A stretch of 64,000 nt of DNA. Origin: Thermoanaerobaculia bacterium (lineage in GTDB: Bacteria; Acidobacteriota; Thermoanaerobaculia; UBA5066; Gp7-AA6). The notes under the pieces are model-generated. The model did not search any database, was not told where the DNA came from, and saw only the letters and a program-made list of their open reading frames with translations. The position numbers were made by a program, and so were the translations under genes. Shown here piece by piece: positions 254 to 41,965 of the stretch (within the stretch, counting starts at the first letter, position 1; every line of letters starts with the position of its first letter). The DNA is taken from assembly GCA_041483715.1 (NCBI GenBank), contig JBGPGG010000001.1, positions 8,936 through 72,935 of the forward strand, in the 5' to 3' direction.

Positions 254-339
254 GGTAGACGGTAGACGGTAGACGGAAAACGGGAGACGAAAGACGAGTG
301 ACAGCCGTCGTCTACAGTTTCTCGTTTCCCGTCTCCCGA
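254..339. repeat. Heptad-repeat hairpin element in the rpmF-plsX intergenic region
   Basis: (GGTAGAC)x3 + AAACGGGAGACG-AAAGACGAG ... CCGTCGTCTAC ... CTCGTTTCCCGTCTCCCG: two repeat arms and their complements arranged A-B-A'-B'. Confidence 0.7.
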
Positions 340-513
340 CTAGGTGTTGATCGCCTGCTTGCCCTTGTAGTACCCGCAGCGCGGGCAGACGCGGTGCGGC
401 TGCTTTGCCTCATGGCAGTTCGGGCAGTCGGAAAGGGCCGGGGGCGTCAGCGCGTCGTGCGCGCGGCGCTTGTCGCGGCGGGCCTTGCTGTGGCGTCGCT
501 TTGGATTGGGCAT
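340..513 (-). CDS. rpmF: 50S ribosomal protein L32
   Basis: MPNPKRRHSKARRDKRRAHDALTPPALSDCPNCHEAKQPHRVCPRCGYYKGKQAINT is a typical L32 with Cys4 zinc ribbon. The internal ATG of the 340..588 ORF was chosen as start. Confidence 0.9.
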   Translation of the reverse strand: MPNPKRRHSKARRDKRRAHDALTPPALSDCPNCHEAKQPHRVCPRCGYYKGKQAINT

Positions 514-520
514 CGTTCTC

Positions 521-1048
521 CTACACTTTCTCCTCGAGGGCCCGGAGGGTCTCCCAACGGGGGTCGACGGCGTCGTGCGCGCCGGCACACGGACCGAGGT
601 TCAAGTCGTTGCCGCAGGCGGGACACAGACCCTTGCAGTCCGGTCGGCACAGCGGCTTCATGGGCATCGCCATCTGGACCCGCTCCTCCGCGATCGGCGC
701 GAGCGGGACCACGGGGTCGTCGTAGAACACGGCGTCGAGGTCTTCCTTGGCCAGCTCCGTTTCCTCTTCCGTCAGGACCCGCTTCGGGTAGAGGACGAGC
801 GAGAAGGCCTCTTCCTGCTGGAAGGGGTACGCGGCGAGGCAACGGCTGCACTCGAGCTCGCCCTCGTAGACGAGTCGGGCCGAGAGCGCGTATCCCCCTT
901 CGATGCGGATGACCTCGCCCGACATTTCCAGGGGGGAAATCGCGACGAGGGGCTCCCGGTCGATCGCTGCAACGGCGACCGGCAGGGCGCTCTCGAACCG
1001 CAGGGGCTCGTCGAGCACCGAGTCGAGGGAAACGGCGTCCAGCTTCAT
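521..1048 (-). CDS. yceD: YceD/DUF177 family protein (upstream partner of rpmF)
   Basis: 175 aa starting MKLDAVSLDS with CxxC...CxxC motifs (CLAAY...CRPDCKGLCPACG) typical of DUF177. Its position 5' of rpmF is conserved. Confidence 0.8.
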   Translation of the reverse strand: MKLDAVSLDSVLDEPLRFESALPVAVAAIDREPLVAISPLEMSGEVIRIEGGYALSARLVYEGELECSRCLAAYPFQQEEAFSLVLYPKRVLTEEETELAKEDLDAVFYDDPVVPLAPIAEERVQMAMPMKPLCRPDCKGLCPACGNDLNLGPCAGAHDAVDPRWETLRALEEKV

Positions 1049-1103
1049 GATCGAACCGCGCATTCTACCCGCGCAGTGGCAGTAGTCAACTCGGATGGGA
1101 GAA

Positions 1104-1193
1104 GTCGACAGTCGACAGTTCACAGTCGACAGTGAGCAAAGGCCACGGGCTCAAACTGTTGACTGTCAACTGTCAACTACTGTCGACTGTAGA
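1104..1193. repeat. Heptad-repeat hairpin element (GTCGACA family) between divergent yceD and GT genes
   Basis: GTCGACA GTCGACA GTTCACA GTCGACA GT - 22 nt spacer - ACTGTTG ACTGTCA ACTGTCA ACTACTGTCGACTGT. Confidence 0.75.
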
Positions 1194-1202
1194 CTCCCTC
1201 GC

Positions 1203-2321
1203 GTGCGGATCGCCATCGACAGCCGGGCCCTTCTGGCCGAGCGGACCGGCATCGGAACCTACACCTATGCCGTGGCACAGGGTCTAGCGGCCATGGGAGA
1301 TGCGGAGGTGGGGCTCTTTGCCCCCCGCCCGTTCCCAAAGACGCTCGATGGCACGGGCGCATTCTCCCTCCACACCGACCACCACCCCTTCGGGATCGTG
1401 TGGCTGCAGACGACGCTTCCCCGGCGGATCGCCCGCTGGGGAGCCGACGTCCTCCTCTCGGCCCTGACGATCGGCCCGGCCCGCGGGCGCGTCCCGTTCG
1501 TCTCCGTCGTGCACGACCTGACGCCCATCACGCACCCGGAATGGCACGCCGGCCGCACGCTCATCGGGTTCATTCCCATGTGGGAGCGGACGGTCGAGCG
1601 GGCCGCGCGCTTCCTCTGCGTTTCGAAGACCACGGCCGACGACCTCGTCGCGCGCTACCCCGAGACCGCGCCGCGCGTGCGCATCGCGCGCAATGGAGTC
1701 GACCGGGCGTTCTTCTGCCCCGTCGACGACCCTCCCGCCCGGCAGCGGACCCGGCAGCGGTACGCCAACGCCAGGCCGTACATCCTGTACCTGGGAACGC
1801 TCGAGCCGCGCAAGAACGTCGAGGCGCTCGTGGCCGCCTGCGAGCGGATGTGGGGACGGCGCCGCTCGCGCCCGGACCTCGTGCTCGCCGGCGGCGCGGG
1901 CTGGAAGACCGCGGGCCTCCATCGGAGGATCGTGCGGTCGCCGTACCGCGACAAGATCCACGTGGCCGGATACACTGCGCGCGAGGCGGCGCGCGAGCTC
2001 TACCGGGCGGCCGAGGCCTTTGTCTACCCGTCCCTCGCGGAGGGGTTCGGCCTCCCGCTGCTCGAGGCGATGGCGTGCGGCACGCCCGTCGTCTCCTCGA
2101 CCGCCGACGCGCTCGTCGAGGTCGGCGGCGACGCGGCGTTGTATGCCCCGGCGCGCGACATCGAGGCGCTCTCGCGGCAGATCGAGCGCGCGCTCGAAGA
2201 CGAGGACGCGCGCCTCGCCCTGCGCGCGGCGGGGCAGAAGCGCGCCGCCCAGTTTCGGTGGGAGGACGCGGCGCGGGACACCGCGGCGGCCCTCGCCGAG
2301 GCCGCCCGGGGAGAGCCATGA
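1203..2321 (+). CDS. Glycosyltransferase family 4 (GT-B)
   Basis: GTG start giving VRIAIDSRALL... C-terminal EGFGLPLLEAMACGTPVV motif of GT4 enzymes. The first 36 codons of the track ORF lie in the heptad-repeat element and were excluded. Confidence 0.8.
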   Translation: MRIAIDSRALLAERTGIGTYTYAVAQGLAAMGDAEVGLFAPRPFPKTLDGTGAFSLHTDHHPFGIVWLQTTLPRRIARWGADVLLSALTIGPARGRVPFVSVVHDLTPITHPEWHAGRTLIGFIPMWERTVERAARFLCVSKTTADDLVARYPETAPRVRIARNGVDRAFFCPVDDPPARQRTRQRYANARPYILYLGTLEPRKNVEALVAACERMWGRRRSRPDLVLAGGAGWKTAGLHRRIVRSPYRDKIHVAGYTAREAARELYRAAEAFVYPSLAEGFGLPLLEAMACGTPVVSSTADALVEVGGDAALYAPARDIEALSRQIERALEDEDARLALRAAGQKRAAQFRWEDAARDTAAALAEAARGEP

Positions 2322-3487
2322 CCCGCTCGGCAAGGCCCAAGATCGGCATCGACGCGCGCAAGGTCGCGGACTTCGGCATCGGCTCCTACATCCGCAACCT
2401 GATCGAAGGAATCGCTCGGCGCCCCGAGGCCGAGCAATACCTCTTTCGCGTGTACGTCCCGGGCGCGGACCGCGACGCGCTGCCGCCGCTGCCCTCCCAT
2501 TTCGAGATCGTCCAGGACGACTCCCCCGGCTACTCGATCTCCGAGCTCACGGGCTTCGCCTGGCGACTCCTGCGCGACCGGCTCGACCTCTTCCACGCAA
2601 CCCACTACGTGATCCCGCCGCTCGCCCGCGCGCGCGCGGTCGTTACGATCCACGACATCATCCACATCCTCTATCCGCAGTTCCTTCCCAACCGCGCGGC
2701 CCTTCTCTACGCGCGCGTGATGATCCGCCGGGCGCTCTCCCGCGCGGACCGGATCGTGACGGTGTCCCACAACAGCAAGCGCGACCTCGTGGACTACTTC
2801 GGCATCGCGCCGGCGCGGATCGAGGTCATCTACAACGGCGTCGCGGCCCGCTTCCGGCCCGACCTGCCGCGCGCCGAACGGGACCGCGTGGCGGCGAAGT
2901 ACGGACTTCCGCGCCCCTACCTTCTCTTCCTCGGCGGCGAAAAGCCGCACAAGAACGTGCGCAACGTCCTGCGGGCCTTCGCCGAGGCGCGGCGGGAGCG
3001 CGCCCTGCCGCACACGCTCGTCCTCGCCGGCCTGATGCCGCCCAATCGCAGTCGGGTCGAAGCGCTGATTTCCGCGCTCGACCTCGAGTCCCGCGTCCTG
3101 CGGACGGGCGTCGTCCCGGAAGAGGACCTCCCCGGCCTCTTCGCGGGCGCGGACGCCTTCCTCTATCCGACGCTCTACGAAGGCTTCGGGCTGCCGGTCG
3201 CCGAAGCGATGGCCTGCGGCACGCCGGTTCTGACGTCCTCGACCTCGGCGCTGCAGGAGATCGCGGGCGGTTACGCCTACCTGGTCGACCCGATGGACGT
3301 GGACGCGATCGCCCGCGGGATCGCGGATCTGGCGACCGACCCCTCCCGCCGCGCCGAGTTTGCCGACCTCGGCAAGCGCCGCGCCGCCGGGTTCTCCTGG
3401 GACCGCGCCGCCGAGCAGACGCTGCGCGTCTACGCGGATGCGCTCGGGTCCGGAAAACGGGAAGCGGGAAACGGGAAACGTCAATGA
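2318..3487 (+). CDS. Glycosyltransferase family 4
   Basis: ATG at 2318 overlaps the stop of the previous gene (ATGA). MTRSARPKIGIDARK... with YEGFGLPVAEAMACGTPVL. The C-terminal 13 aa (GSGKREAGNGKRQ) are encoded by the heptad-repeat element. Confidence 0.8.
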   Translation: MTRSARPKIGIDARKVADFGIGSYIRNLIEGIARRPEAEQYLFRVYVPGADRDALPPLPSHFEIVQDDSPGYSISELTGFAWRLLRDRLDLFHATHYVIPPLARARAVVTIHDIIHILYPQFLPNRAALLYARVMIRRALSRADRIVTVSHNSKRDLVDYFGIAPARIEVIYNGVAARFRPDLPRAERDRVAAKYGLPRPYLLFLGGEKPHKNVRNVLRAFAEARRERALPHTLVLAGLMPPNRSRVEALISALDLESRVLRTGVVPEEDLPGLFAGADAFLYPTLYEGFGLPVAEAMACGTPVLTSSTSALQEIAGGYAYLVDPMDVDAIARGIADLATDPSRRAEFADLGKRRAAGFSWDRAAEQTLRVYADALGSGKREAGNGKRQ

Positions 3488-3536
3488 TCGACGCTGGCCG
3501 CTTTGCGTTTTCCGTTTTCCGTTTTCCGTTTCCCGC
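3452..3536. repeat. Heptad-repeat hairpin element (GAAACGG family), overlaps the 3' end of GT gene 2
   Basis: GGAAAACGG GAAGCGG GAAACGG GAAACG - 26 nt - (C)GTTTTCC x3 GTTTCCC. Encodes ...GSGKREAGNGKRQ* of the glycosyltransferase. Confidence 0.8.
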
Positions 3537-3539
3537 CCG

Positions 3540-6028: not shown

Positions 6029-6032
6029 GAGA

Positions 6033-6120
6033 GGGTCAGGTCTGAAAACTTCTGACTTTGAGCCTCCGTTGGGTTTGAGCCCCATAGGTTCCCAAAGTCA
6101 GAAGTTTTCAGACCTGACCC
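6033..6120. repeat. Perfect 28-bp inverted repeat with 32-nt loop between convergent genes
   Basis: GGGTCAGGTCTGAAAACTTCTGACTTTG ... CAAAGTCAGAAGTTTTCAGACCTGACCC. Right arm contains the stop codon (TGA) of the tgpA-like gene. Confidence 0.9.
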
Positions 6121-8125
6121 TTTTCTTCAAGCGGCGCACGCGCTCGGAGAGCTGGCGCACGGTGTCGGGGCCGGGCTCGACGCCCCCGAAGGCGCTCGCG
6201 CAATAGACCGCGACGACGGCCCGCGCGTCCTCGCGCGATCCGGAGACCGTCTCGGCGAAGAGCCGCGCCACTTCCGCGGGCGGCGTCGACGGCAGGACGG
6301 CTCCCCTTTTCCGGGCGAGCAGATGCCGCAGCGCGAGGTAGGCCTGCGTCGCCGGCCCGTGCCGCCTGCGGGCCCGCGACAGGCCGCGCCAGATCATCCA
6401 GCCGAGAAGCCCCGCCCCGAGAACGGACGCCAGCGAGGCCGGCGAGACGTCCCGCGCCGACTCCCTCAGCGCGGCGAGGCTGCCCGCGGCCGCGGCCAGC
6501 GACTCGCGCGCGGTCTCGATGGCGCCGACCTGGTCGGCCGCGTCGAAACCGAGCACGCGCCGGTCGTAGAAGAACTCGATCTCGCGCCCGAGGGCCGCCA
6601 GGCGCGACAGCAGCGAGTAGGCCTGGAGGGCCGGCGGCAGCCCTCCCGGAGGCGTCGGATCGAACACCTGGAAACCCGTCGCGTCCAGCTCCACCTCGAC
6701 CCACGCATGGAGGTTCTGCGCCCGCACGACGATCGTCCGGGAGAACAGCCCCTCTTCCCCCCCGTACGAACCGGTCACCAGACGGGCCGGGATGCCGCGG
6801 GCGGTCAGCATCATGGCCGCGGCGGACGCGAAGTACTCGCAGTGGCCCGCCTTCGAGCGCAGCAGGAAGTGCACGAGCGGATCGCCCGCGCCGCGCGGGG
6901 GATCGAGCGTGTAGACGAAGTCCTTCGCGAAGTGCTCCGCGATGCCCCGCGCGATCGCGCGGGGCTCCGAGAGGCCGGCCGTCAGCTCGATGGCGTACTT
7001 CTGGATCTCGGCGGGCACGTCCGCCGGCGAGATGGCCCCGCGCCCCGCGCCCCGCGGCGCGACCCGGCGCAACTCGGTCTGGTAGCGCACCGGGCCGCGG
7101 GACGACGAGACCTGCATCACGCCGTCCGGCAGCTCGACCGCGCGCCCCCGCTCCACCTGCACTGTCGAGGACCCGTACGGCAGGAAGAGGAATCCCTGGC
7201 CGAAGACGTTCAGGTCCACGGAGATGACGGCCGCGCCCCCCGGGCGGCCCTCCGGGGCCTGCAAGGTGTGGGCGGCCCTTTCGCCGCGCCGCGGGCCGAG
7301 GCGCGGATCGCGCGTCCACACTCCGTCGAGGTAGTCCGTGAACACGGCCTCGCGCAGCCGCAGGGAGTCCTCGGGCGCGAGCTCCGATTCCGACGAGAGG
7401 CGGAGGATGACGCGGTCGCTTCTCTTGGCGGCGCCGAAGGACTCGAGGTCCACCCGGTCCGACACGAGCGCCTTGCCGAGGGCATCTTCCACGCGGAACG
7501 GCGTGAGCGCGAAGGGACCGTGCAGCCGTGGGAGCGCGAAGAAGAGCGGCGCCGTGCACAGCGCGCCGCCGAGGACGGCGACTGCCGTCAGCCCGCGCGT
7601 GGGTACGGCCGTGAGCACGCGGTCGGGCGGCGCGTCGTCGAAGTCCGCGAGCACGGCGAGAAGCCCCAGGGTCCGGAACCCGATCCAGGCCGCCGCCGCA
7701 AAGTACAGCGCCGAGGACACGTGCGTCGAGGAGGAGGCTGAAGCGAGCGTTACGAGAAAGATCACGAGGAGCGCCAGCCGCGCCTCGCTCGGCCGCTTCA
7801 GGGACGCCAGCTTGGCCAGGCCGGTGAAGAGAAGCAGGTGCGCGACCGTCAGCAGGAGCCCCGGCCGCAGCGTCGAGGCTGAGAAGCCGAGCCACGCGAG
7901 GTAGACGAGGCCGGCCACGTTCATCGCCGCGTCCGAGATGCGCACGGGGCGGCCTCTTCGCGCGCGCCACCAGAGAAACGCGAGCGCCAGCTCGTAGAGC
8001 AGGATCGCTTTGCGGCTCGCGCCCCCGGTCCACGCGAGCGGCAGCGGCGCGAGGAATGCCGCCGGCGCGAGCACCAGGAGGTAGGCGCGCGAAAGGCCCT
8101 CGGGCATCGGGCGGGCGCGCGTCAC
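6098..8125 (-). CDS. Transglutaminase-like membrane protein (TgpA-like: N-terminal polytopic DUF3488 + transglutaminase core)
   Basis: GHCEYFASAAAMMLTARGIPARLVTGSYGGE matches the Cys-protease-like transglutaminase core. Multiple N-terminal TM helices. GTG start overlaps the stop of the DUF58 gene (GTGA). Confidence 0.8.
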   Translation of the reverse strand: MTRARPMPEGLSRAYLLVLAPAAFLAPLPLAWTGGASRKAILLYELALAFLWWRARRGRPVRISDAAMNVAGLVYLAWLGFSASTLRPGLLLTVAHLLLFTGLAKLASLKRPSEARLALLVIFLVTLASASSSTHVSSALYFAAAAWIGFRTLGLLAVLADFDDAPPDRVLTAVPTRGLTAVAVLGGALCTAPLFFALPRLHGPFALTPFRVEDALGKALVSDRVDLESFGAAKRSDRVILRLSSESELAPEDSLRLREAVFTDYLDGVWTRDPRLGPRRGERAAHTLQAPEGRPGGAAVISVDLNVFGQGFLFLPYGSSTVQVERGRAVELPDGVMQVSSSRGPVRYQTELRRVAPRGAGRGAISPADVPAEIQKYAIELTAGLSEPRAIARGIAEHFAKDFVYTLDPPRGAGDPLVHFLLRSKAGHCEYFASAAAMMLTARGIPARLVTGSYGGEEGLFSRTIVVRAQNLHAWVEVELDATGFQVFDPTPPGGLPPALQAYSLLSRLAALGREIEFFYDRRVLGFDAADQVGAIETARESLAAAAGSLAALRESARDVSPASLASVLGAGLLGWMIWRGLSRARRRHGPATQAYLALRHLLARKRGAVLPSTPPAEVARLFAETVSGSREDARAVVAVYCASAFGGVEPGPDTVRQLSERVRRLKKRVRSENF

Positions 8126-9105: not shown

Positions 9106-9112
9106 GGGATTT

Positions 9113-10051: not shown

Positions 10052-10069
10052 CGGGGTCTTTGCGCTCCT

Positions 10070-12658: not shown

Positions 12659-13738
12659 ATGTCCAGCGTGAAACCCAACGAAAAGTGGCGCGCCGTCGAG
12701 ACGGCGCTGACGCAGATCGAGCGCCAGTTCGGCAAGGGCTCGATCATGCGGCTCGGCGAGCGGCCCTCGGTGGCCATCGCCGTCATCCCGACCGGCTCGC
12801 TCGCGGTCGACGCCGCCCTCGGCGTCGGCGGCATCCCCCGCGGCCGCGTCGTCGAGATCTTCGGCCCGGAATCCTCGGGCAAGACGACGCTCTCCCTCCA
12901 GGTCATCGCCCAGGCGCAGAAAACCGGCGGCCTCGCGGCCTTCATCGACGCCGAGCACGCGCTCGACTCGGAGTACGCGAAGAAGCTCGGCGTCGACACG
13001 GACAACCTGCTCGTTTCCCAGCCCGACAACGGCGAGCAGGCCCTCGAGATCGCGGAGATGCTGATCCGCTCCGGGGCGATCGACGTCATCGTGATCGACT
13101 CGGTCGCGGCCCTCGTGCCGAAGGCCGAAATCGAGGGCGAGATGGGCGAGGCGCAGATGGGCCTCCAGGCGCGGTTGATGTCGCAGGCGCTGCGCAAGCT
13201 CACGGCAATCGTCTCCAAGTCCGGCACGAGCCTGATCTTCATCAACCAGATCCGCGAAAAGATCGGCGTGATGTTCGGCAATCCCGAGACGACGACGGGC
13301 GGCCGCGCCCTGAAGTTCTATGCGTCGATCCGCATCGACATCCGCCGCATCGCCTCGATCAAGGACGGCGACGTGGTCGTCGGATCGCGCACGAAGGTCA
13401 AGGTCGTGAAGAACAAGATGGCCGCCCCGTTCCGGCAGGCCGAGTTCGACATCAACTACGGCGAGGGCATCTCCCGGGTCGGCGAATTGATCGACATGGG
13501 CCTCGAAGCCAAGCTGGTCGAGAAATCGGGCGCGTGGCTCTCGTACGGGGACCTGCGCATCGGCCAGGGCCGCGAGAACGCGAAACAGTTCCTGAGGGAC
13601 AACCCCGAGCTCGCCGCCGAGATCGAGCGCAAGCTGCGCCAGAGCCTCGGCCTCGGTGTCGTCGAGGCCGGACCGGCGGTCGCGGTGCCCGCGGCCGTGG
13701 CGGAAGCGGAGAAAGAAAAGGAGAAGGCGCGGCGCTAG
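12659..13738 (+). CDS. recA: Recombinase RecA
   Basis: Full-length RecA ([10 protein letters not shown] Walker A, L2 loop, etc.). RBS AAGGTGAGG lies 5 nt upstream. Confidence 0.97.
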
Positions 13739-13792: not shown

Positions 13793-16558
13793 ATGGTGAT
13801 GACAGCATCCAGACGCGCCCGCAGCCTTGCGGGCGTTTTCCTTTTGGCTGCCTTCGCGGCTGCCGCCGCGAAGGGCGAGCGGCTGCGCCTGGCCGCCGAG
13901 CGGCCGGACGGCTCCTGCCCCGCCGACGCGAAGCTCCTCGGCATCGCGCGCCTCGGGGCCGAGCTTCCGGCGGGATCGAATCCGGCCGGTTGCCTTTTTC
14001 TCGTCGAGCTGAAGGGCCTCTCGGACGCCGAGATCGACGCCGCGGTCGAATCTCTCGCCCGACTGCAGTCGGCGGCGGGACTGGTCCTCACGCTTCCCGT
14101 CTCGGCCGACACCGAACGCTTCGCCTACGCCGCCAAGCGGCTGTCGTCCATCTTTCGCTCCGGATCGCCCGACGGGCAGATCGCCCTCGACACGGCCCAG
14201 CCGCTCGATGCGGCCATTGAGGAGGAGCTCGCGCCCTATGTCGACGCGCTCATCGTCCGGTCGGGCTCGACCGCGCCGACCGAGGCCACGCAGCGCATCT
14301 GGGTCCTGGCCGCGCCCACCGACACGCGGACGCCGGCCGCGACCGCGCTCGCCGCCTTCGGCGAATTTCCGCAGGCCGTCCTGGTCGGCGTGCTCGCCGG
14401 CGAGAAGCCCCTCGTGGCAGCACACGAGACCCTGTCCCGCCTGCAGCAGTACCTGACGGCGGACGCCTCGCGCGACCCGACCCCGACGCGCGTCGCGCGC
14501 AAGGACGGCACGACGGTGCAGGCGCTGCGCCTCTTCGACGCGAAGACCTTCACGCCGGTGCTGCTGTTGCCCGATTCCCCCGGCGGGCCGGTCGCCATCG
14601 ATCTCGAGGGCGGCCCCTTCGCGAAAGCGGCCGTCGAGAACCTCGCGAGCGGCGCCCGGCGGGACTTCGAGCTGAAAGGGGCGAAGACCCTCACGCTCGA
14701 TCTCTCGAAGGCGCCGCTGGCGGTCACCCTCACGCCCGTCGAGCGCGCCGGCGGGGACACGAAGGCGGCCGTCGAGGTCGGGGCGACCCGGGGGCTGACG
14801 GCCGATGAGATCATCGCCCGCGAGCGCGCCTGGGACGCGGGCCAGCGCGACCGGACCCGCACGTACGCGGCGGCGATGGACACCTCGCTGCGCTTCCGCG
14901 TGGCACAGCTCACGGGCAGCCTCGACCTGACGATCCGGGGCCCCTACTTCTTCCAGCAGGGAAAGCCCTCGGACTGGGCCTGGCAGGAGTTCTTTCTCAA
15001 CGGCGTGAAGTGGAAGGGCCGCACGATCCCGAAGCTTCCGATCCTGCAGCCGGACAAGGTCACGACCCTGCCGCTCGACATCCGCTTGACCGAGGAGTAT
15101 GCGTACGAGCTCGCCGGCGAGACCTCGATCGACGATCGGCCCGCCTACCGCGTGGACTTCCGACCGCGGTCGACCACGGGCGACAAGCCGATCTACCGCG
15201 GCACGGCCTGGATCGACCGCGAGACCTTCGCGCTCCTGCGCCGCGAGTCGATCCAGCTGAACCTGAAGAGCGACACGCTCTCGAACGTCCAGACCGAGTA
15301 CTACCGTGCGGTGCCCGGAGCCCCCGGCGTCGTGCTGCCGCTCGAGATCCGCGGCCAGCAGGTGTTCTCGACGGCCGGCCGGACGACCGCCATCGAGCGC
15401 AAGGTCGTGATGAGCGACGTCGTCATCAACCCGTCGGACTTCGAAGCGCGGCGCAAGGAAGCCTATGCGTCCAAGTCCCAGATGGTCCGGGATACGGACG
15501 AAGGGCTGCGGTACCTCGTGCCCGACCCGGGCAAGCCCGAGGAGCGCCTGGTCGAGAGCAAGCTCACTCGCAAGAGCCTCTTCGGCATCGCCGGCGCCTT
15601 CTACCAGCGGGGCCAGGACTACCCCTTCCCGCTGCTCGGCGTCCAGTACTTCAACTTCGACATGTGGGGAAAGAACAAGCAGCTATCCGTCTTCTTCGCG
15701 GGAGCGCTGGTGTTCGCCAACTACACCGACCCCGCGTTTCTGGGCAGCCGCTTCGACCTCGGGGCGGACGCCTTCGGCTTCGCGATTCCGCTCGTCGAGA
15801 CGAACTACCGCAACGGCGTCGATGTCCGCAGCGAGCGGATCAAGCACCTGCCGGAGTTCTTCCAGATCAACCTCGGCCACCCCTTCGGCCCGTACCTCAA
15901 GGCGTCCCTCCTGCTCTCCGCGCAGTGGGACAACTATCAGCGCGACCAGGACACCGGGCCCGAGTTCGTCACTCCCGTCGACACGTTCACCTACGGCGCC
16001 GGCCTGCGGCTGAACTGGAACCAGGACGGCTACAACATCGCGGCCAACGGCGGCTACTTCTCGCGCGCCGAGTGGCGGCCGTGGGGCGATCCGGACACCT
16101 CCGGCTACGACCCGCGGCAGAAGGACTACTGGAAATACTCGGTCGACGTCTCGAAGGGTTTCTATTTCGCCGAGTTCCGCAAGCTCCTCCTGAAAGTCGC
16201 CTACCTCGGAGGACAGGACCTCGACCGTTTCTCCCGGTGGGACTTCGGCCCGTTCGGGACGAACAGCATGATCGGCTTTCCGAGCGGCGCCGTGCTCGCC
16301 GACCGCGCCTATCAGGCCAACATCGCCTACGGTCTCAACATCGAGAGCATCGTGCGCTTCGAGCTCGAGTACAACCAGGCGGTGGTCACGAACCGACAGG
16401 CCGGATGGAAAAACACCTACTTTTCCGGCTTCGGAATCACGACCGCGTTCAACGGCCCGTGGGATGGCACGCGCATCCGGGCCGAGGTCGGCTACCCCGT
16501 CGTCGCCCAGGGCGTGAAGGGATTCACGATCAATGCGCAGATCCTGAAGCTGTTTTAG
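13793..16558 (+). CDS. Large outer-membrane protein: signal peptide, ~570-aa periplasmic region with a LolA-like segment, C-terminal ~350-aa beta-barrel ending ...AQILKLF
   Basis: Sec signal MVMTASRRARSLAGVFLLAAFAAAAA. C-terminal alternating aromatic/hydrophobic beta-strand pattern and terminal Phe typical of OM beta-barrels. Mid region YRVDFRP..YRGTAWIDRETF resembles LolA-like/DUF1329-type folds (unverified). Confidence 0.6.
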   Translation: MVMTASRRARSLAGVFLLAAFAAAAAKGERLRLAAERPDGSCPADAKLLGIARLGAELPAGSNPAGCLFLVELKGLSDAEIDAAVESLARLQSAAGLVLTLPVSADTERFAYAAKRLSSIFRSGSPDGQIALDTAQPLDAAIEEELAPYVDALIVRSGSTAPTEATQRIWVLAAPTDTRTPAATALAAFGEFPQAVLVGVLAGEKPLVAAHETLSRLQQYLTADASRDPTPTRVARKDGTTVQALRLFDAKTFTPVLLLPDSPGGPVAIDLEGGPFAKAAVENLASGARRDFELKGAKTLTLDLSKAPLAVTLTPVERAGGDTKAAVEVGATRGLTADEIIARERAWDAGQRDRTRTYAAAMDTSLRFRVAQLTGSLDLTIRGPYFFQQGKPSDWAWQEFFLNGVKWKGRTIPKLPILQPDKVTTLPLDIRLTEEYAYELAGETSIDDRPAYRVDFRPRSTTGDKPIYRGTAWIDRETFALLRRESIQLNLKSDTLSNVQTEYYRAVPGAPGVVLPLEIRGQQVFSTAGRTTAIERKVVMSDVVINPSDFEARRKEAYASKSQMVRDTDEGLRYLVPDPGKPEERLVESKLTRKSLFGIAGAFYQRGQDYPFPLLGVQYFNFDMWGKNKQLSVFFAGALVFANYTDPAFLGSRFDLGADAFGFAIPLVETNYRNGVDVRSERIKHLPEFFQINLGHPFGPYLKASLLLSAQWDNYQRDQDTGPEFVTPVDTFTYGAGLRLNWNQDGYNIAANGGYFSRAEWRPWGDPDTSGYDPRQKDYWKYSVDVSKGFYFAEFRKLLLKVAYLGGQDLDRFSRWDFGPFGTNSMIGFPSGAVLADRAYQANIAYGLNIESIVRFELEYNQAVVTNRQAGWKNTYFSGFGITTAFNGPWDGTRIRAEVGYPVVAQGVKGFTINAQILKLF

Positions 16559-18161: not shown

Positions 18162-18183
18162 CGCGAGGCCGAGGAACGGGGAA

Positions 18184-18204
18184 CGTGAATCGTGAATCGT
18201 GAAT
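18184..18204. repeat. (CGTGAAT)x3 direct tandem at the start of the LolA-like gene
   Basis: gtgaatcgtgaatcgtgaatgg; the GTG start codon is inside the tandem. Confidence 0.8.
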
Positions 18205-18818: not shown

Positions 18819-18825
18819 TCGGGAG

Positions 18826-18927
18826 TTGACAGTCAACAGTTAACAGTTAACAGTAAGCGGCTCGAGCATGAAGCTGAGAGCCGCTGCCATCCTGCTCTGT
18901 CGACTGTCGACTGTGAACTGTCGACCG
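18826..18927. repeat. Heptad-repeat hairpin element (ACAGT family) between LolA-like gene and yajQ
   Basis: GTTGACA GTCAACA GTTAACA GTTAACA GT - 40 nt spacer (itself a GCGGCTC/GAGCCGC hairpin) - CTGTCGA CTGTCGA CTGTGAA CTGTCGAC. Confidence 0.8.
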
Positions 18928-20610: not shown

Positions 20611-20991
20611 ATGTCAGCAATTCCAAACGGTTGGACCGCCCTCGCCGCCACCCTGAAGAATCTCTCTCAACTCCTTCCAGGACAATCAGATCCGTCCAGC
20701 GAGGCGGATCTCTACTACCGCCGGGCGCGACTGGCCGCGGCCGAGGAGCGCTTCGACGTCGCGCTGGTGTTCTGCGCGAAAGCCGTGCATGTGGCGCCCC
20801 GACATCTCGCCGCTCGTCTGCTGATCGCGAAGATCTACGACAAGGGCCTCGACAACCTCGAAGCGGCCGTCGCGGGCTACAAGAAAGTCATCGCGCTCGC
20901 CGGCTACGAAGGCACCGACCCCCACTGCATCGCCGCCCGCGAAGCGCTGGACGCACTGGTTCAGAAGGTCGGAGTAGTCGGAAGTCTGTAG
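20611..20991 (+). CDS. Hypothetical small protein with TPR-like helices
   Basis: Track ORF begins at a TTG inside a local AT-rich island. The first ATG (20611) gives 126 aa. The stop codon TAG lies inside the heptad-repeat element. No recognisable family. Confidence 0.4.
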   Translation: MSAIPNGWTALAATLKNLSQLLPGQSDPSSEADLYYRRARLAAAEERFDVALVFCAKAVHVAPRHLAARLLIAKIYDKGLDNLEAAVAGYKKVIALAGYEGTDPHCIAAREALDALVQKVGVVGSL

Positions 20992-21047
20992 TCTTGGTCT
21001 GTAGTCCGAGCCCACACCGACCACCGACCACAGACTACCGACTTCCT
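20971..21047. repeat. Heptad-repeat hairpin element (GTAGTC family) between convergent genes
   Basis: GGAGTAGTCGGAAGTCTGTAGTCTTGGTCTGTAGTCC ... CACCGACCACCGACCACAGACTACCGACTTCC. TAG stops of both flanking genes lie in GTAGTC units. Confidence 0.75.
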
Positions 21048-27783: not shown

Positions 27784-28293
27784 GTGGCGGCCGGCAAGCC
27801 CGCGAGGGCAAAGATCCGCGCCCTCTTCCTCGACGTCGACGGCGTCCTGACCGACGGGCAGATCTACCTCGACGGACGCGGCCACGAGCTCAAGGTCTTC
27901 AACACCAAGGACGGCCATGGCATGCGCAAAGCGGCCGCCGCCGGGATCACGCTCTGCTGGATCTCCGGCCGCTCTTCGCCGGCCACGGCGCGGCGGGCCC
28001 GCGAACTCGGCGTGCGCCTCTGCTACCAGGGCGTCCGGGACAAGCGCGCCCGCCTCGAGTCGGTGCGCCGCAAGCTCGGGCTCTCCCGCGGGCAGACCGC
28101 CTCGATCGGGGACGACGAGCCCGACATCCCGATGTTCGAGGCGACGGGCCTTTCCGCCTGCCCCGCCGACGCCGTTCCCGCCGCCCGCCGCGCCGCCGCG
28201 GTCGTGCTCAAGAGCCCGGGGGGGCACGGGGCGGTCCGGGAGTTCGTCGAGCTGATCCTGAGGACAAACGGGGCCGTGAAACGTAAGACGTAG
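27784..28293 (+). CDS. kdsC: KDO-8-phosphate phosphatase (HAD superfamily, KdsC-type)
   Basis: GTG start directly after the kdsD stop. LFLDVDGVLTDG HAD motif I. 169 aa. Confidence 0.8.
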   Translation: MAAGKPARAKIRALFLDVDGVLTDGQIYLDGRGHELKVFNTKDGHGMRKAAAAGITLCWISGRSSPATARRARELGVRLCYQGVRDKRARLESVRRKLGLSRGQTASIGDDEPDIPMFEATGLSACPADAVPAARRAAAVVLKSPGGHGAVREFVELILRTNGAVKRKT

Positions 28294-28332
28294 GACCGGC
28301 GTTTACCGTTTTCCGTTTCCCGTTTCCCGCTT
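28270..28332. repeat. Heptad-repeat element (GAAACGG family, right arm well preserved), overlaps the tatC 3' end
   Basis: CGTTTAC CGTTTTC CGTTTCC CGTTTCC CG preceded by a degenerate GAAACG/TAAGACG arm. Encodes ...KRETGNGKR* of TatC on the minus strand. Confidence 0.7.
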
Positions 28333-31527: not shown

Positions 31528-31559
31528 AATGGTTTCTCGGGGCGCTCCCCGCGTATCGC

Positions 31560-33448: not shown

Positions 33449-34495
33449 ATGAGGGCGCTCCTTTCGTCGCGGCGCTTCCAGGCAGTCGCTTCGATCGTCC
33501 TTGCCCTCGGTCTCTTCGCCTTCTTCCTCTCCCGCGTCCCGCTCGGCGACATCGCCCGGCAGATCACCGCGGCTTCCCCCGCGTGGCTCGCGGCCACCGT
33601 TCTCATCTCGCTTTCGACGTTCGTCCTGCGCGCCGTGCGCTGGGTCTGGATCCTGCGGCCGCTCGCCCGTGTGCCCTTCTTCCCCGCTTTCCGCGCCACC
33701 GCCATCGGCTTCGCCGCCAACACGGTGCTACCGGCCCGGGCCGGAGAGATCCTGCGCCCGGCCATCCTGGCGCGCGAGCGCGCCCTGCCCTTCCCCGCCC
33801 TGCTCGCCTCGATCGTGTTCGAGCGCATCCTCGACGCCATGTCGCAGCTCTTCTTCCTCGGGCTGGCCCTCGCCACGGGTCCCTCCGGCGGGGCGATGGG
33901 GTCTTTTGCCTCGGGCCGCATCCGATGGGTCGTCGCCGCGATCGCCGCGGCCGCGATCGGCGTGGCCCTGTTCGCGGTCCTGTGGCGCGCGGCGACCGAG
34001 CGCTTTCTCGAACGGCTCTTCCGCCCGCTGCCCGAACGGTTCCGGGACGTCGCGCGCCGGATCGCGCACACGTTTCTGGACGGATTCGCCTCCCTGAAAA
34101 CGCCGCGCCTCGCACTCGCCGTCGGAGCGAGCTCGCTCTTCATGTGGTTCGTGATCAACGTCCAGATCTATTGCACCATACGCGCCTTCGGCCTCGACCT
34201 TCCGCTCTCGGCCGCCTACGTGGTGACCACCGCGGCGGTGCTCGGGCTCGCGGTCCCGACCCCGGGAGGGGTCGGCGGCTACCACGCCGCCGTGCAGTTC
34301 GCCCTGACCAACATCTTCCTCGTGCCGCTCGCCGCGGCGACCGGCGTGGCGCTGCTCGCGCACGCCATCTCCTTCGTGCCGATCTCGCTGATCGGCTTCG
34401 TGCTCTTCGCCGCGAGCCCCTCGAGGAAGAAGGGGCTGAAGGAACTGCAAGGAGAGACGGTAAACGGGAGGCGGGAGACGGGAGACGGGTCGTGA
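33449..34495 (+). CDS. UPF0104/YbhN-type membrane protein (lysylphosphatidylglycerol-synthase-like TM domain)
   Basis: 8 TM helices with the GxxxNxxLPxRxGE motif (GFAANTVLPARAGE). Last 8 aa and the stop lie in the heptad-repeat element. Confidence 0.7.
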   Translation: MRALLSSRRFQAVASIVLALGLFAFFLSRVPLGDIARQITAASPAWLAATVLISLSTFVLRAVRWVWILRPLARVPFFPAFRATAIGFAANTVLPARAGEILRPAILARERALPFPALLASIVFERILDAMSQLFFLGLALATGPSGGAMGSFASGRIRWVVAAIAAAAIGVALFAVLWRAATERFLERLFRPLPERFRDVARRIAHTFLDGFASLKTPRLALAVGASSLFMWFVINVQIYCTIRAFGLDLPLSAAYVVTTAAVLGLAVPTPGGVGGYHAAVQFALTNIFLVPLAAATGVALLAHAISFVPISLIGFVLFAASPSRKKGLKELQGETVNGRRETGDGS

Positions 34496-34518
34496 GCGGG
34501 TTTCGTCTTCCGTCTCAA
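34456..34518. repeat. Heptad-repeat hairpin element (GAGACGG family), overlaps the 3' end of the UPF0104 gene
   Basis: GTAAACGGG AGGCGGG AGACGGG AGACGGG - TCGTGAGCGGG - TTTCGTC TTCCGTC TC. Encodes ...NGRRETGDGS*. Confidence 0.7.
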
Positions 34519-34555
34519 GATGGCAACCGGGTCAAAACGGCGATAGTCTGACTCC

Positions 34556-35026: not shown

Positions 35027-35033
35027 GAGAGGA

Positions 35034-35107
35034 GTCGACAGTTCACAGTTCACAGCTGACAGGCCAGATGAGGGCGGCTGTCGACTGTCGACTGTCGACT
35101 GTCGACT
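35034..35107. repeat. Heptad-repeat hairpin element (ACAGT family) between nrdR and hsp20
   Basis: GTCGACA GTTCACA GTTCACA GCTGACA GG - 14 nt - (CTGTCGA)x4 CTGTTCCCG; ends 8 nt before the hsp20 ATG. Confidence 0.8.
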
Positions 35108-35114
35108 GTTCCCG

Positions 35115-35585: not shown

Positions 35586-35591
35586 CGAGGA

Positions 35592-39061: not shown

Positions 39062-39666
39062 GTGAACCGCAGACGCCCGGTACCGGCGCGACGACCCGCA
39101 AGCGGCACAAGTCGCTCAAGCGCCGCAGGCTACAGTTCCTTCTCGAGCTAATGGGGCGCGCCGAGGCGCCCGAGCGCGTCGCCGCCGCGGTCGCCCTCGG
39201 AGTCGGCGTGGGGTTCTCGCCCTTCATGGGGTTCCACTTCTTCGTCGCGATCCTCCTCGCCTTCCTCTTTCGGCTGAACAAGTTCGACGCCGTGCTCGGC
39301 TCCTTCGCGGGGAACCCGTGGACGCTGCCTCCCGTCTACGCCATGGGCTACCGGCTCGGGCGCGCCGTGCTCGGCTATCCGCCGGCCGGCGTTGCGCCGC
39401 TCCAGTGGCAGCGGATCCTCCACCACGACTTCTGGCTATCGTTCCGCGGCCCCGCCCTCGGGCCGCGCCTGGCGTCGTTCCTCGTCGGGACAACGATCCT
39501 CGCCGTGGCGGCGGGGCTGGGAACGTACCTGCTCGCACGGGGGTTCCTGAAGCTCTACCACCGGCGCCATCCGCGTGTGGGCGCGCGCGCGGCCCGCCGG
39601 CGCGAGCGGGTCGCCGGGCGTCCGCCGGAGGAAGTCGAGATCCGACCCGACGAGCGGGTGCACTAG
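39058..39666 (+). CDS. DUF2062-type small membrane protein
   Basis: ATG overlaps the thiL stop (ATGA). Basic N-terminus then 3-4 TM helices (GFSPFMGFHFFVAILLAFLF...). Confidence 0.6.
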   Translation: MSEPQTPGTGATTRKRHKSLKRRRLQFLLELMGRAEAPERVAAAVALGVGVGFSPFMGFHFFVAILLAFLFRLNKFDAVLGSFAGNPWTLPPVYAMGYRLGRAVLGYPPAGVAPLQWQRILHHDFWLSFRGPALGPRLASFLVGTTILAVAAGLGTYLLARGFLKLYHRRHPRVGARAARRRERVAGRPPEEVEIRPDERVH

Positions 39667-39678
39667 CTAGAGCAACGG

Positions 39679-41529
39679 CTATCGGGGCGGTCCCGAGGGT
39701 TGCAGCTCCTTCATTTTCTCGAGCGCGGGCTTGTAGCGGGGAGCAAGACGCAGGAGTTCGCGCACCTGCGCGCGGGCGTCCTCGCGCAAGCCGCTCGCGG
39801 CAAGCCAGTCCGAGTACCCGAGACGCGAAGGCAGCGAGCCCGGATCGATCGCGAGCGCCCGTCGCCAAGCGTGGAGCGCTGCCGGCCGCTTCTCGGCCGC
39901 GAGGAGCAGGGCCATGCGGTACGCCAGCGGAAGCGACTGCGGGTTGTGGTGCAGGCCCTGCCGGTACGCCTCTCCGGCGCCGGCGCGGTTGCCCAGCTCT
40001 TCGCGCGCAAGCCCGACGCCGTACCAGCCGTTCTCGTAGGTGGGCACGAGCCGCAGCGACTCGGCGTACGAGCGTTCGGAGGCCCCGAGGTTGCCGAGCG
40101 TCCTCTCCACGCGGCCCTTCCCCGCCCAGGCGTCCCAATAGCCGGGGTAAATCTCAGTGGCCCGCGTGTAGTGCTCGAGGGCAAGCCGCGCATTGCCCGC
40201 CTCCGCCGACATGTAGGCGAAATCGTAGTGGGCCTTCGCGCTCGCGGGAGATACGCGCACCATGTTCGTGAAGAGCGCCGCGTCGCTCGCCCACACGGGG
40301 TTGCGGACGAGCGTCCGCGCCGCGAGCAGAAGAGCGAGGGCCGCGAGCAAACCAGCGCGCCGCGGGCCGAGGGCCGCGAGGTCCGGGGCGCGGCCGGCGA
40401 TCCAGGAGGCGACGATCAGGCAAAAGCCCGCCGACGGAAGGTAGGCCAGGCGCTCCGCGAAAATCGTCCCCGTCGGAAAGAGCAGGTTCGACGTCGACAG
40501 GGCTGCGAGGCACAGAAATAGGAAGCCCAACGCAGTCACCGAGCGGGATCGCAGCCGCGCGAGCGACGCAACGACGAGCACTGCAAGCAGGACCGGCGCC
40601 AACCAGAAGAGAACGTCGCGCAGGCAAAGCATGTGGATGGACCACGCCGATTCGTCGGAGGAAAGACGCAGCGGCAGCGCCATCCTCCCAAGGGAGCGGA
40701 AAAAGAGCGCGGAGGCATTCGCGGCGCGGGGCAGCAGCGCGAGTGGCGCCAGAGGGTTCTCGAGCTCGAAGATGCCCGTGCCGCCCGCCCTGATCGCGCC
40801 GCCGAGCACCAGGGAGCGCAGACGAAAGACGGCGAGGAGAACGGCGGCCGCGCCGGCGTAGACCGGCAAACCCCGGTCGAGCGCCGCGCGAAGCCGCGCC
40901 GCAAGGCTACCGTCGGCGCGCCACGCGAGCAGCAGGAAGAGAAGCCCGGGCGCGACGGCCGCACTCTCCTTGGTCAGGTTGGCCAGCAGGTAGAGAACAA
41001 GGGCCACGCCGACCGCAAGCACGCGCCGCCCGATTCGGTCGATGAAGCGCAGGGAAAGAAGGAGGAAGCCGAGAACCAGCGCCGCCGCCTGCGTCTCTCC
41101 TCGTCCCACGACGCTCGTGACGGCCTCGACGTGGATCGGATGCACCGCGAAGAGAAGGGCGGCCCCGATCGCCACGGGGGGCGGCAGATCGATCCGCAGC
41201 AAGAGCCGCGCGTAGAGCAGCGTGACCAGGACGTGGAAGAGCAGGTTGACGGCGTGGTACGCGACGGGGTTGCCGCCGTGAACCCACCATTGGGCGGCGT
41301 AAGAGAGCAGCAGCGCCGGCCGGTAGGCGGTGCCCGTGCCCCGCTTGCCGCCGAAGTACTGCGTCGTGAGGACCTCGTCGATGCGCTGCGGGCTCCGGAT
41401 CCTCGGATTGTCGCGGACGATCGCCTTGTCGTCGTAGGCGAAGGCGCCGGTCAGGCCGTTGGCGTAGGAAAGAAGACACGCGCCCGAGAGCAGGAGCGCG
41501 GAGGCGAGCCGGAGGCGTCCCGAGCTCAC
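39679..41529 (-). CDS. Polytopic membrane glycosyltransferase-like protein with C-terminal TPR repeats (PMT_2/TMTC-like)
   Basis: ~11 TM helices over ~400 aa, then TPR repeats ([36 protein letters not shown]...). GTG start overlaps the stop of the mini-SdaA ORF (GTGA). Confidence 0.65.
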
Positions 41530-41825
41530 CGGATCTGGTAGAGATCGTTCCGGATGCGGCAGCCTGTCGGGGTCATCGCCAGGCCGCCGTCGGCGGTCTC
41601 CTTCAGGGAGCGTGGCATCGCCTCCCCGATCTTCACCATCGCCTCGACGACTTCGTCCATCGGGATCACGCTCTCGACGCCCGCGAGCGCGGTCTGCGCC
41701 CCCGTCAGCGCGAGCATCGCCGTGAAGCCGTTACGCGCCACGCGCGACAGGCGGCATGCCCCCGCCGTGTGCGACGAAGAGGGGCCGACCATGACCGGAC
41801 CGACGATGTCGAGCAGCGAAATCAC
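41526..41825 (-). CDS. Miniature L-serine dehydratase-like protein (99 aa)
   Basis: [23 protein letters not shown] matches the SdaA N-terminus (E. coli [23 protein letters not shown]). C-terminal part ...[10 protein letters not shown] resembles the SdaA C-terminal KETSxGGLA segment. The ~350 intervening residues are absent. GTG start with no obvious RBS. Confidence 0.45.
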
Positions 41826-41845
41826 GGGGGGAGTATAGGGTGGCT

Positions 41846-41965
41846 TTAGAGTCGAGAGGTCGAGAGTCGAGAGAGACGTACCGTCGCAAGAGTCTCCCGG
41901 TGCCCTTCGTCCCGACCCTTGACCCCTACCCCTGACCCTCGACCCTAAACCCTCGACCCTCCACC
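41846..41965. repeat. Heptad-repeat hairpin element (GTCGAGA / CCCTCGA family) at the 3' end of the sigma-54 activator gene
   Basis: AGAGTCGAGAGGTCGAGAGTCGAGAGAGACG - 40 nt - eight CCCTNNA(C) heptads (CCCTTGA CCCCTAC CCCTGAC CCTCGAC CCTAAAC CCTCGAC CCTCCAC). Encodes ...GGGSRV* of the activator. Confidence 0.75.

Follow-up and report, generated by a model that had tools for sequence, protein, structure and literature searches.

The stretch of DNA treated here is a 64,000-nucleotide segment of the genome of an uncultured soil Thermoanaerobaculia bacterium (Acidobacteriota; GCA_041483715.1, contig JBGPGG010000001.1, positions 8,936 to 72,935 of the forward strand), referred to below as the window. 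Lodged between its genes are about nine long hairpins whose arms consist of tandem 7-base repeats, and these heptad elements are the subject of this article. The DNA has a G+C content of 66-75%, and the roughly 40 open reading frames (ORFs) scanned with Pfam are ordinary housekeeping genes, including rpmF, plsX, yceD, glycosyltransferase genes, recA, purH, lolA, pyrG (CTP synthase), tatC, nrdR, hsp20, lon and aroA (EPSP synthase); RecA was assigned from Pfam families on the called genes of contig L001, and plsX from its first codons. No transposase or nuclease was found among these ORFs, a result from which, at 64 kb, little follows for the genome as a whole. RecA places the window in Acidobacteriota, and the nearest genome locus (L005) belongs to an uncultured Acidobacteriota metagenome-assembled genome (MAG; CAVXOX010000005.1), whose RecA is 93% identical and whose DNA is collinear with window positions 2612-23780 at 77-81% identity. 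The elements constitute a non-random class of inverted arrays with a period of seven, strongly enriched in this Acidobacteriota clade. They are listed here with their gene setting, folding energy (kcal/mol) and z-score, followed by a perfect inverted repeat that does not belong to the class.

253..342: heptad hairpin E1; left arm ~6 units (CGGTAGA x3, CGGAAAA, CGGGAGA, CGAAAGA), loop ~10 nt, right arm ~4 units (CGTTTCC/CGTCTCC type); between the rpmF stop (340-342, minus strand; Pfam L32) and the plsX start (~199, minus strand); fold -44.6/-39, z -4.6/-3.0.
1103..1195: heptad hairpin E2; left GTCGACA/GTTCACA x4, loop 21 nt, right CTGTTGA/CTGTCAA/CTGTCGA/CTGTAGA; between yceD (start 1051, minus strand) and a glycosyltransferase gene (GTG 1203, plus strand), the sole window element in a divergent spacer; fold -49/-51, z about -6.
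3451..3536: heptad hairpin E3; left CGGAAAA/CGGGAAA x4, loop 18 nt, right CGTTTTC x4-5; between two co-directional glycosyltransferase genes, the upstream ORF terminating within the loop (stop 3485-3487) and the next ATG lying 4 nt past the right arm; fold -47.1/-38.9.
18170..18204: one-armed heptad run (CGAGGAA, CGGGGAA, CGTGAAT x3), called by Tandem Repeats Finder (TRF), in the 30-nt purH-lolA spacer.
18824..18927: heptad hairpin E4; left GTTGACA/GTCAACA/GTTAACA x4, loop 42 nt, itself holding a small hairpin, right CTGTCGA/CTGTGAA x4; between co-directional lolA (stop 18818) and a DUF520 gene (ATG 18945); fold -51.7/-49.5, z -5.2.
20971..21047: heptad hairpin E5; left GTAGTCT type, right CACCGAC/CACAGAC type; at convergent gene ends, the upstream ORF terminating in the left arm (stop 20989-20991); fold -38.9/-44, z -4.4/-5.1.
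28270..28332: weak member E6; GTGAAAC/GTAAGAC/GTAGGAC against CGTTTAC/CGTTTTC/CGTTTCC x2, loop 3 nt; where the HAD-hydrolase (stop 28293) and tatC (stop 28303) genes converge, within the 3' ends of both coding sequences; folding on a par with shuffles, z -0.5/-0.4.
34456..34518: heptad hairpin E7; left 5 units (GAGACGG/TAAACGG/GAGGCGG), right just 2 (CGTCTTC, CGTCTCA); between an LPG-synthase-TM gene (stop 34495, within the element) and nrdR (GTG 34556); fold -30.1/-18.
35033..35109: heptad hairpin E8; left GTCGACA, GTTCACA x2, GCTGACA, loop 15 nt, right a perfect CTGTCGA x4; begins 6 nt past the nrdR stop and finishes 5 nt ahead of the hsp20 ATG; fold -43 on both strands, z -5 to -5.6.
41842..41967: heptad hairpin E9 (TRF); left AGAGTCG x3-4, loop ~35 nt, right CGACCCT/TGACCCC type x7-8; between a sigma-54 activator gene (minus strand; stop 41945-47 in the right arm) and the next minus-strand gene (GTG 41825); fold -40/-60.7.
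6032-6121: perfect inverted repeat, not heptadic; arms 29-31 bp, loop 26-32 nt, then TTTTCTT; between convergent genes for a sugar transferase (plus strand) and a transglutaminase-like protein (minus strand); fold -65, z -12.

Typically, two arrays of 4-5 units of 7 nt face each other in inverted orientation across a loop of 3-45 nt with a sequence of its own, and the whole measures 60-125 nt. Single-strand folding turns eight of the nine paired loci into long imperfect hairpins (-30 to -61 kcal/mol, with z-scores from -3 to -6 that hold for one strand or, more usually, for both), whose 25-35 bp stems carry a mismatch at about every seventh base. The original prediction, made from the letters of the window, had described such hairpins at all nine loci; the exception is 28270-28332, with a z-score of about -0.4 against its shuffled controls. 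Its notion of a stem able to slip between registers is borne out by the repeat finder, which gives three alternative pairings for the element at 3452 and two for that at 35034. The equal copy number that it ascribed to both arms does not hold, since 34456 has 5 units against 2 and 254 about 6 against 4. It had also placed a one-armed (CGTGAAT)x3 tandem at 18184-18204; that array does lack an inverted partner, but the extent given was too short, the run being 18170-18204.

Could chance produce such a pattern? TRF called period-7 arrays at every listed locus. A position-independent scan found 16 period-7 runs in the window against 0.6 expected from 30 dinucleotide-preserving shuffles, and at the same threshold the window held no run at all with a period of 5, 8, 9, 10 or 11. 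With a laxer threshold the count became 19, against a mean of 1.57 in 100 dinucleotide shuffles, and 11 of these 19 runs had a reverse-complement array within 110 nt, against a mean of 0.03 and a maximum of 1 in the shuffles; no paired array of any other period from 5 to 11 occurs in the window. By this definition of an inverted partner, 88 of the 173 heptad runs (51%) in 2.0 Mb of window and related loci are paired, versus 2% in the null. The constant 7-nt period noticed at the outset is thus that of a real, non-random family, and head-to-tail 7-nt copies beyond chance also make its arrays heptanucleotide long simple sequence repeats (LSSRs) in the sense of Mrazek et al. (2007). Density differs strongly between lineages. 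Counted as paired arms per Mb, it is about 170 for the window, 114 for the nrdR clade, 18 for other Acidobacteriota (RecA loci) and 1.5 for Actinomycetota of similar G+C. The hundreds of copies per genome first extrapolated would be plausible. There are 19 heptad runs in L138, none in 20 kb of the syntenic loci L101, L152 and L154, and no heptad element found between 42 and 64 kb of the window.

A chance pattern, or one created by assembly or synthesis, is scarcely credible. Besides the shuffle controls, which lie far below the observed runs and pairs, the nrdR region and both flanking elements (34456, 35034) are base-for-base identical in GCA_041492305.1 and in the Logan assembly of SRR35959912, apart from one synonymous single-nucleotide polymorphism in the NCBI copy (GCA_041492305.1); no variation in unit number was seen among these three assemblies of the same strain. 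Such agreement between independent assemblies excludes an artefact, and related elements occur in dozens of independent metagenomes and MAGs. The one sign in the other direction is a Logan short-read contig that stops within the right arm of E8, and it shows that assemblers have trouble with these repeats. None of the Rfam 15 covariance models matched anywhere in the window at the gathering score. CRISPR arrays, which the first description already discounted, are ruled out by contiguous 7-nt units and inverted arms, as opposed to 24-48-nt repeats with unique spacers. Integron attC sites and coding repeats were rejected on anatomy: the flanks are conserved and syntenic, the units contiguous, and 7 is not a multiple of 3.

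Comparison with relatives shows that the elements come and go as discrete blocks, within the short interval that separates a stop codon from the start or promoter of the following gene. BLAST breakpoints between the window and L005 coincide exactly with the elements. E3 is a clean extra block of about 89 nt relative to L005, where the glycosyltransferase genes overlap by ATGA; E4 is absent there, with 66 unrelated nt instead; and the segment homologous to E5 is shorter and not heptadic. Five syntenic relatives lack E9, their spacers measuring 24-65 nt. Sites may also be occupied differently: at the E6 site L108 has a full heptad hairpin, and at 18170-18204, where JGI contig L001 carries the same run as the window, L005 has another one, of CCGTCCG type. 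A metagenome scan with NrdR extended the comparison to 80 loci with conserved lpg-nrdR-hsp20-lon order, in which three spacers were compared. These fall into two size classes, a short one of mostly 0-30 nt and a filled one of mostly 85-125 nt, with a few intermediates and with some fills resembling repetitive extragenic palindromes (REPs) that reach 256 nt. Filled spacers contain one of three things: a heptad hairpin whose arms have 4-5 units each, a run with one arm, or a REP-like hairpin of unrelated sequence (GTCATCCCGAGG...CCTCGGGAT). Three states coexist in the nrdR-hsp20 spacer, for between flanking genes that are 96.6-99.4% identical it holds the 88-nt GTCGACA hairpin in the window, 25 nt and no element in L086, and a 109-nt REP-like fill in L085. 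A neighbour-joining tree built from nrdR plus hsp20 shows the filled and the empty state scattered among one another. The test of mobility proposed at the outset is thereby positive in the sense that presence and absence vary between close relatives, at this spacer and for E3, E4, E5 and E9, which are missing in relatives.

The arms themselves change unit number independently, E7 having 5+2 units in the window, 5+2 in L085 and 2+4 in L086 at about 97% flanking identity; in E8 and E1, perfect unit runs are confined to one arm. Unit sequence differs between lineages while the arms remain complementary. In the nrdR-hsp20 spacer, with a similar 3' flank, left and right units are CGGGACT/AGTCCCG, CGGGAGA/CGTCTCC, CGGGAGG/CTGCCGC or CGGAAAA/CGTTTCC according to lineage, and in the hsp20-lon spacer TCAGTTT/AAACTGA of L138 corresponds to TCAGCTN/NAGCTGA of L153. 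Orthology of these elements would mean that both arms changed together, its absence that the site was refilled time and again.

Other occupants of the same spacers deserve mention. Hairpins of the REP-like family (GTCATCCCGAGG[G/C]CCGCAGGCCCGAGGGATCCC...) fill the nrdR-hsp20 spacer in L085, L088-L090, L092, L093, L095, L101 and L103-L108; the family is present in several tandem copies in L096 and L101, and a related 26-nt tandem lies at window 50827-50892. In L085, L089, L092, L093, L095, L101 and L108, the last 12 nt of nrdR, stop codon included, pair with an inverted copy in the 30 nt or so that follow, and this copy tracks the synonymous Thr codon (ACA, ACT, ACC, ACG versus TGT, AGT, GGT, CGT). 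Either this stem is selected, or the inverted copy was templated locally on arrival of the REP-like element. The hsp20-lon spacers of L159, L164, L130, L123, L141 and L129 contain single arrays or two non-complementary ones, such as (GTGATTT)n followed by (CGACTGT)n, which implies that arrays can act as separate modules; the GTCGACT-type array always stands there just upstream of the downstream start codon and in the same orientation.

Where the elements sit with respect to genes is equally constrained. Pooling the window and related loci gave 47 non-redundant paired elements, about 35 of them between co-directional genes, 6 between convergent genes and 1 between divergent genes. The median gap measures 2.5 nt between a stop codon and its element and 16.5 nt between the element and the start codon that follows, which supports the gene-end and intergenic placement originally claimed. 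In the window, E3, E4, E7, E8 and E9 are co-directional, and E5 and E6 lie at convergent gene ends. At five loci of the window the upstream ORF continues into the element, as far as an arm or the loop (3451-3487; 20971-20991; 28303-28332, minus strand; 34456-34495; 41945-41967, minus strand) and thereby gains a short C-terminal tail that is missing in relatives. Among the tails translated from the arms are ...GSGKREAGNGKRQ, ...FRKRETGNGKR (tatC), ...NGRRETGDGS and ...QKVGVVGSL, each directly before the stop. Promoter-like motifs occur on the downstream side. Both nrdR and the gene starting at 41825 have a conserved TAnnnT box, placed 6-8 nt upstream of the start codon: the nrdR box, immediately downstream of E7, is TAGTCT in the window (34540-34545, GTG 34556) and TAAGCT, TACTCT or TAATCT in relatives, and the GAGTATAG box adjoining E9 (41830-41837, upstream of the minus-strand GTG 41825) is kept in six loci. 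They suggest -10 boxes of mRNAs that are leaderless or have very short leaders, directly behind heptad elements. Together with a TATACT box after E1 on the minus strand (~243-248), this suggests promoters directly behind some elements; a promoter-like TTGACT-16-TAGAAT for yceD lies 14 nt from E2.

Unit sequences differ between sub-families, as first reported, and to such an extent (more than 40 canonical heptamers in use in the window and relatives) that the elements form a structural class and not one sequence family. Within an array the units differ mostly in one or two positions, so that each array can be described as a 5-nt core plus variable positions: the top two heptad positions hold 0.89 of the unit-to-unit differences versus 0.74 expected (p ~1e-6), the former figure being somewhat inflated by duplication of variant units. 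Several arrays show three different bases at one heptad position. A+T content is higher in the elements than around them, and CAGT/ACTG is their most enriched abundant word (5.4x); GTAG (2.7x background) stays within this general enrichment of A+T-rich words and CGTC is at 0.95x, so that the tag of classical REPs gives no signal, again in agreement with the first description. Within 2 Mb, none of the loops or whole elements tested occurs twice, a result that speaks against copy-and-paste of entire elements. Two L138 elements do start with the same idiosyncratic 21 nt, GGAAGGTGGTAGGTCGTAGGT. G-quadruplexes were rejected as a general explanation because most units are without G tracts: G3 tracts are absent from GTCGACA, CAGTTCT, GGTAGGT and others and confined to the GGGAAAC, GGGAGAC and GGGACTC subtypes. 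Some units are familiar from elsewhere. At L138 766-859 the right arm includes TAACTGA, a heptamer reported in Beggiatoaceae, cyanobacteria and Bacteroidetes, and L015 has (CTGATCA)x8 at 13078-13138. The short tandemly repeated repetitive (STRR) units of cyanobacteria include CCCCAGT and CAACAGT, and the window unit CAACAGT equals STRR3. It is possible that a cross-phylum bias decides which heptamers are amplified, favoring CAGT/ACTG units.

Two further features of the window stand apart from the heptad elements. The repeat at 6033-6120, originally counted as a relative, shows no 7-nt periodicity in its perfect 29-31 bp arms, and 2 Mb of related loci contain no other copy of it; the corresponding site of L005 is taken by an unrelated GC-rich hairpin. 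The repeat, which alone is followed by TTTTCTT, probably represents either a bidirectional terminator or a solitary foldback element. The other is a 921-aa ORF (13793-16558) between recA and purH, to which neither our own scan nor the precomputed record assigns a Pfam family; it is conserved and syntenic in L005 and is found in several independent assemblies.

What could such elements be? The reading that we tentatively prefer, at a little less than an even chance, is that they are slippage-prone repeat hairpins, polymorphic by insertion and deletion, that act like the 3'-end stem-loops of REPs and bacterial interspersed mosaic elements (BIMEs), a function inferred from position and anatomy. 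Arrays would grow and shrink through slipped-strand mispairing of 7-nt units. The second arm would be made and kept matched by template switching within a strand or between arms, in the manner of quasipalindrome correction, by selection for pairing, or by both. Quasipalindrome correction is an established process in E. coli genetics. Because the elements start a few nucleotides past a stop codon and mostly separate co-directional genes, they should be transcribed as the 3' end of the upstream message. Once transcribed, an element would fold into its 25-35 bp stem and could block 3'-to-5' exonucleases, protecting the upstream message; the stem may also act as a pause site or partial terminator independent of a U-tract, uncouple the neighbouring genes and, in some cases, occlude the next start until the upstream ribosome opens it. 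Circumstantial support for a REP/BIME-like role comes from the REP-like hairpins that occupy the same spacer in other lineages and from the nrdR-stop stem that tracks the Thr codon.

Several observations weigh against this proposal. The RNA role is deduced from position, and no heptad element carries a U-tract: a scan with the intrinsic-terminator consensus flagged no whole element and gave no excess over shuffles, its lone match in E1 being a 5-bp stem with a T-poor tail, so the elements are not intrinsic (Rho-independent) terminators. G-U versus A-C asymmetry reveals no preference for the sense strand, which folds better in 19 co-directional cases against 15 for the antisense strand. At the same sites many close relatives make do with 4-25 nt and no element, which means that any function is dispensable. 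Arms are often unbalanced, as in E7, and some arrays are single or have a non-complementary partner, which slippage explains more readily than structural selection. The core of five constrained nucleotides suggests something akin to a binding motif. Finally, GTCGACA, GAGACGG/GAAACGG, GGTAGGT, GGGACTC and CAGTTCT/CAGCTNT recur at unrelated sites in different genomes, which pure in-situ growth would not predict.

That last point leads to the main rival, unlikely in our view, according to which the elements are selfish and non-autonomous, like REP doublets (REPINs) or the small transposable elements bounded by inverted repeats (MITEs), and are inserted near stop codons by an enzyme encoded elsewhere, for instance a HUH tyrosine transposase of RAYT or TIRYT type, with the 7-nt repeats as reiterated binding or cleavage sites and no host function. 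Blocks of 60-100 nt that one genome has and another lacks at exactly the same site, even where the flanks are 97-99% identical, would be expected of such elements, as would a patchy distribution on the gene tree, densities ranging from about 170 to 1.5 paired arms per Mb between lineages, and competition with REP-like elements for the same sites. Units shared by unrelated sites, the common 21-nt start of the two L138 elements and the GTCGACT-type arrays that appear alone beside unrelated arrays fit as well, and Acidobacteria encode a distinct TIRYT group (PMC3733652). More than 40 unit types would, however, demand many specificities, the loops are unique, and neither GTAG nor CGTC is specifically enriched. 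Where filled and empty alleles of E3, E4 and E9 meet, neither a convincing target-site duplication nor a conserved terminus can be seen, three or four junctions being few; CCGGA...CCCGA around E3 is too weak to count as one. With no such duplication and no shared internal sequence, MITEs as such are set aside. No RAYT was seen with the elements, and no transposase in the window, small as that sample of the genome is. More doubtful still is a neutral origin, in which heptanucleotide slippage, a recognised bias of bacterial replication, and hairpin-templated strand switching in unconstrained DNA yield a by-product devoid of function, whose position would mark no more than the non-coding DNA on offer. 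Heptanucleotide repeats are indeed the commonest long simple-repeat class in many bacteria, with polymerase slippage proposed as their source (Mrazek et al., 2007, as summarised elsewhere); here, unit numbers differ between near-identical relatives, arms vary independently, one-armed runs occupy the same sites, and pairing quality has no strand bias. The innermost unit and loop of E8 also resemble the empty-allele spacer of L086 (AGCATGAC...GCTGG versus AGCTGAC...GGCTG), and the E9 unit the local AGGTCG of relatives, but as evidence of seeding from local sequence these weak hints are suggestive and not significant at such lengths. Neutrality offers no account of the inverted partner that accompanies 51% of runs, of arm lengths clustered at 4-5 units, of the avoidance of divergent spacers (1 of about 41), of particular units recurring at many sites or of the 5-nt core kept within arrays; it also sits poorly with the sister lineages L101, L152 and L154, which have the same G+C and gene order and no heptad runs in 20 kb.

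The core-plus-variable structure of the units invites explanations based on a protein. The elements might be phased binding arrays in which each 7-nt unit is one binding step of an oligomeric or multi-domain protein, so that hairpin and coated forms would be alternative states; IHF or HU on double-stranded DNA, and a cold-shock/S1 OB-fold or a HutP/TRAP-like ring on single strands, would be candidates. Cold-shock domains bind about 7 nt, HutP binds UAG-N4 repeats, with a period of 7, and E1 carries (GGUAGAC)x3. Besides the conserved core with one or two variable positions per unit, which the Xanthomonas unit GGGANTN shares, this idea can draw on the recurrence of CAGT/ACTG units across phyla, with TAACTGA in L138, on the IHF/HU proposal for paired sites in Geobacter (PMC2700814) and on that of S1, Csp or CsrA for TAACTGA repeats (PMC4679880). 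Dozens of unrelated cores cannot, however, all be the motif of one protein, no candidate protein has emerged, and the arrays vary in number and are dispensable; we regard the idea as decidedly improbable. We grant only a small chance to a broader conjecture from the same unit structure, namely that the 7-nt step is no quirk of replication but the footprint of a conserved machine, a single-strand-binding protein of cold-shock/S1 OB-fold or HutP/TRAP-like ring type, with the hairpin-or-coated switch setting termination, mRNA decay or translational re-initiation at gene junctions, or else that a dedicated activity adds templated repeats and so writes the arrays. Either version, if true, would tie together the heptamer arrays of Acidobacteriota, Xanthomonas, Geobacter, cyanobacteria and Beggiatoaceae.

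Whatever their origin, the elements have practical consequences, in that the hairpins break short-read assemblies and that appended protein tails, for example ...GKREAGNGKRQ before the stop, will be carried along by annotation pipelines. Among long simple repeats, heptamers show the greatest over-representation in many bacteria, which raises the question of why the unit has 7 nt and what it does. This clade is an unusually clean natural experiment on the matter: gene order is kept across about 80 metagenomic relatives, sites are empty, heptad-filled or REP-like-filled even within one species, and arms change in concert. Such comparisons allow insertion to be told from slippage, structural selection to be tested and gene content associated with load to be sought. 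The within-species trimorphism, the concerted arm change and the core-plus-variable units are useful new handles on the heptamer question.

The first description knew of no precedent for the architecture, but it has been reported, without explanation, in Xanthomonas and Geobacter, and what is new here is the phylum and a rich comparative record. Our literature search turned up neither an account of these elements in Acidobacteria nor later work on what the Xanthomonas arrays do. In X. campestris and X. axonopodis, Rehm et al. (2015; PLoS One, PMC4692102) counted 183-186 arrays of GGGAATC-type heptamers per genome and 70-75 cases per genome in which two convergent arrays form an inverted repeat capable of a stem-loop. 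These arrays are 89-93% intergenic, lie on average 28 nt from the upstream ORF, mostly have four units, are mostly found between co-directional and rarely between divergent genes, are transcribed and vary in length and sequence between close species; no function was found (PMC4692102). The elements of the window share with them the close convergent arrangement of heptamer arrays on opposite strands, the capacity for a stem-loop, the stop-proximal and mostly co-directional location with divergent cases rare, about four units, and a conserved core with variable positions, as in GGGANTN. Xanthomonas, in contrast, uses essentially one G-rich unit (GGGAATC/GGGANTN) with proven G-quadruplex potential, whereas here there are dozens of units, most without it, in a different phylum and with direct evidence of within-species presence/absence and of concerted arm change. 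In Geobacter metallireducens, Aklujkar et al. (2009; BMC Microbiol, PMC2700814) described several classes of paired sites on opposite strands, each with 3-5 tandem units of 7-9 nt at a variable pair distance and drawn as fold-back structures; class 3 comprises five heptanucleotides (MTYCTGA), and the sites are specific to one species of the genus. They were called "global regulator binding sites" and taken, as a guess, for IHF/HU sites on double-stranded DNA (PMC2700814). The window and L138 likewise show opposite strands, 3-6 units per arm, loops of 3-45 nt and several classes, but their units are strictly of 7 nt, whereas those of Geobacter measure 7-9 nt and some have insertion sequences at fixed distances; the Geobacter report was made without comparative or positional analysis.

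Two other groups of repeats are related in part. With LSSRs, STRRs and the TAACTGA direct repeats, for which S1, Csp or CsrA were proposed as binders (MacGregor, 2015; PMC4679880), the elements have in common an excess of 7-nt units, an intergenic bias, a patchy phylogeny, a proposed origin by slippage and CAGT/ACTG units. Those repeats, however, form direct arrays (169 direct sets versus one indirect in Beggiatoa), often just upstream of starts, whereas half of the arrays described here are inverted pairs just after stop codons. REPs, BIMEs and REPINs are likewise intergenic hairpins downstream of genes, between co-directional and convergent ORFs, sometimes entering the ORF ends; the REPIN doublet hairpin is similar in size, and abundance is again lineage-specific; REPs are hypothesised to act in termination and mRNA stabilisation (PMC3733652). 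REPs are nevertheless palindromes of 20-40 nt with a conserved family sequence and a GTAG/CGTC tag, whereas the heptad elements are built from many different tandem 7-mers and show no enrichment of such a tag.

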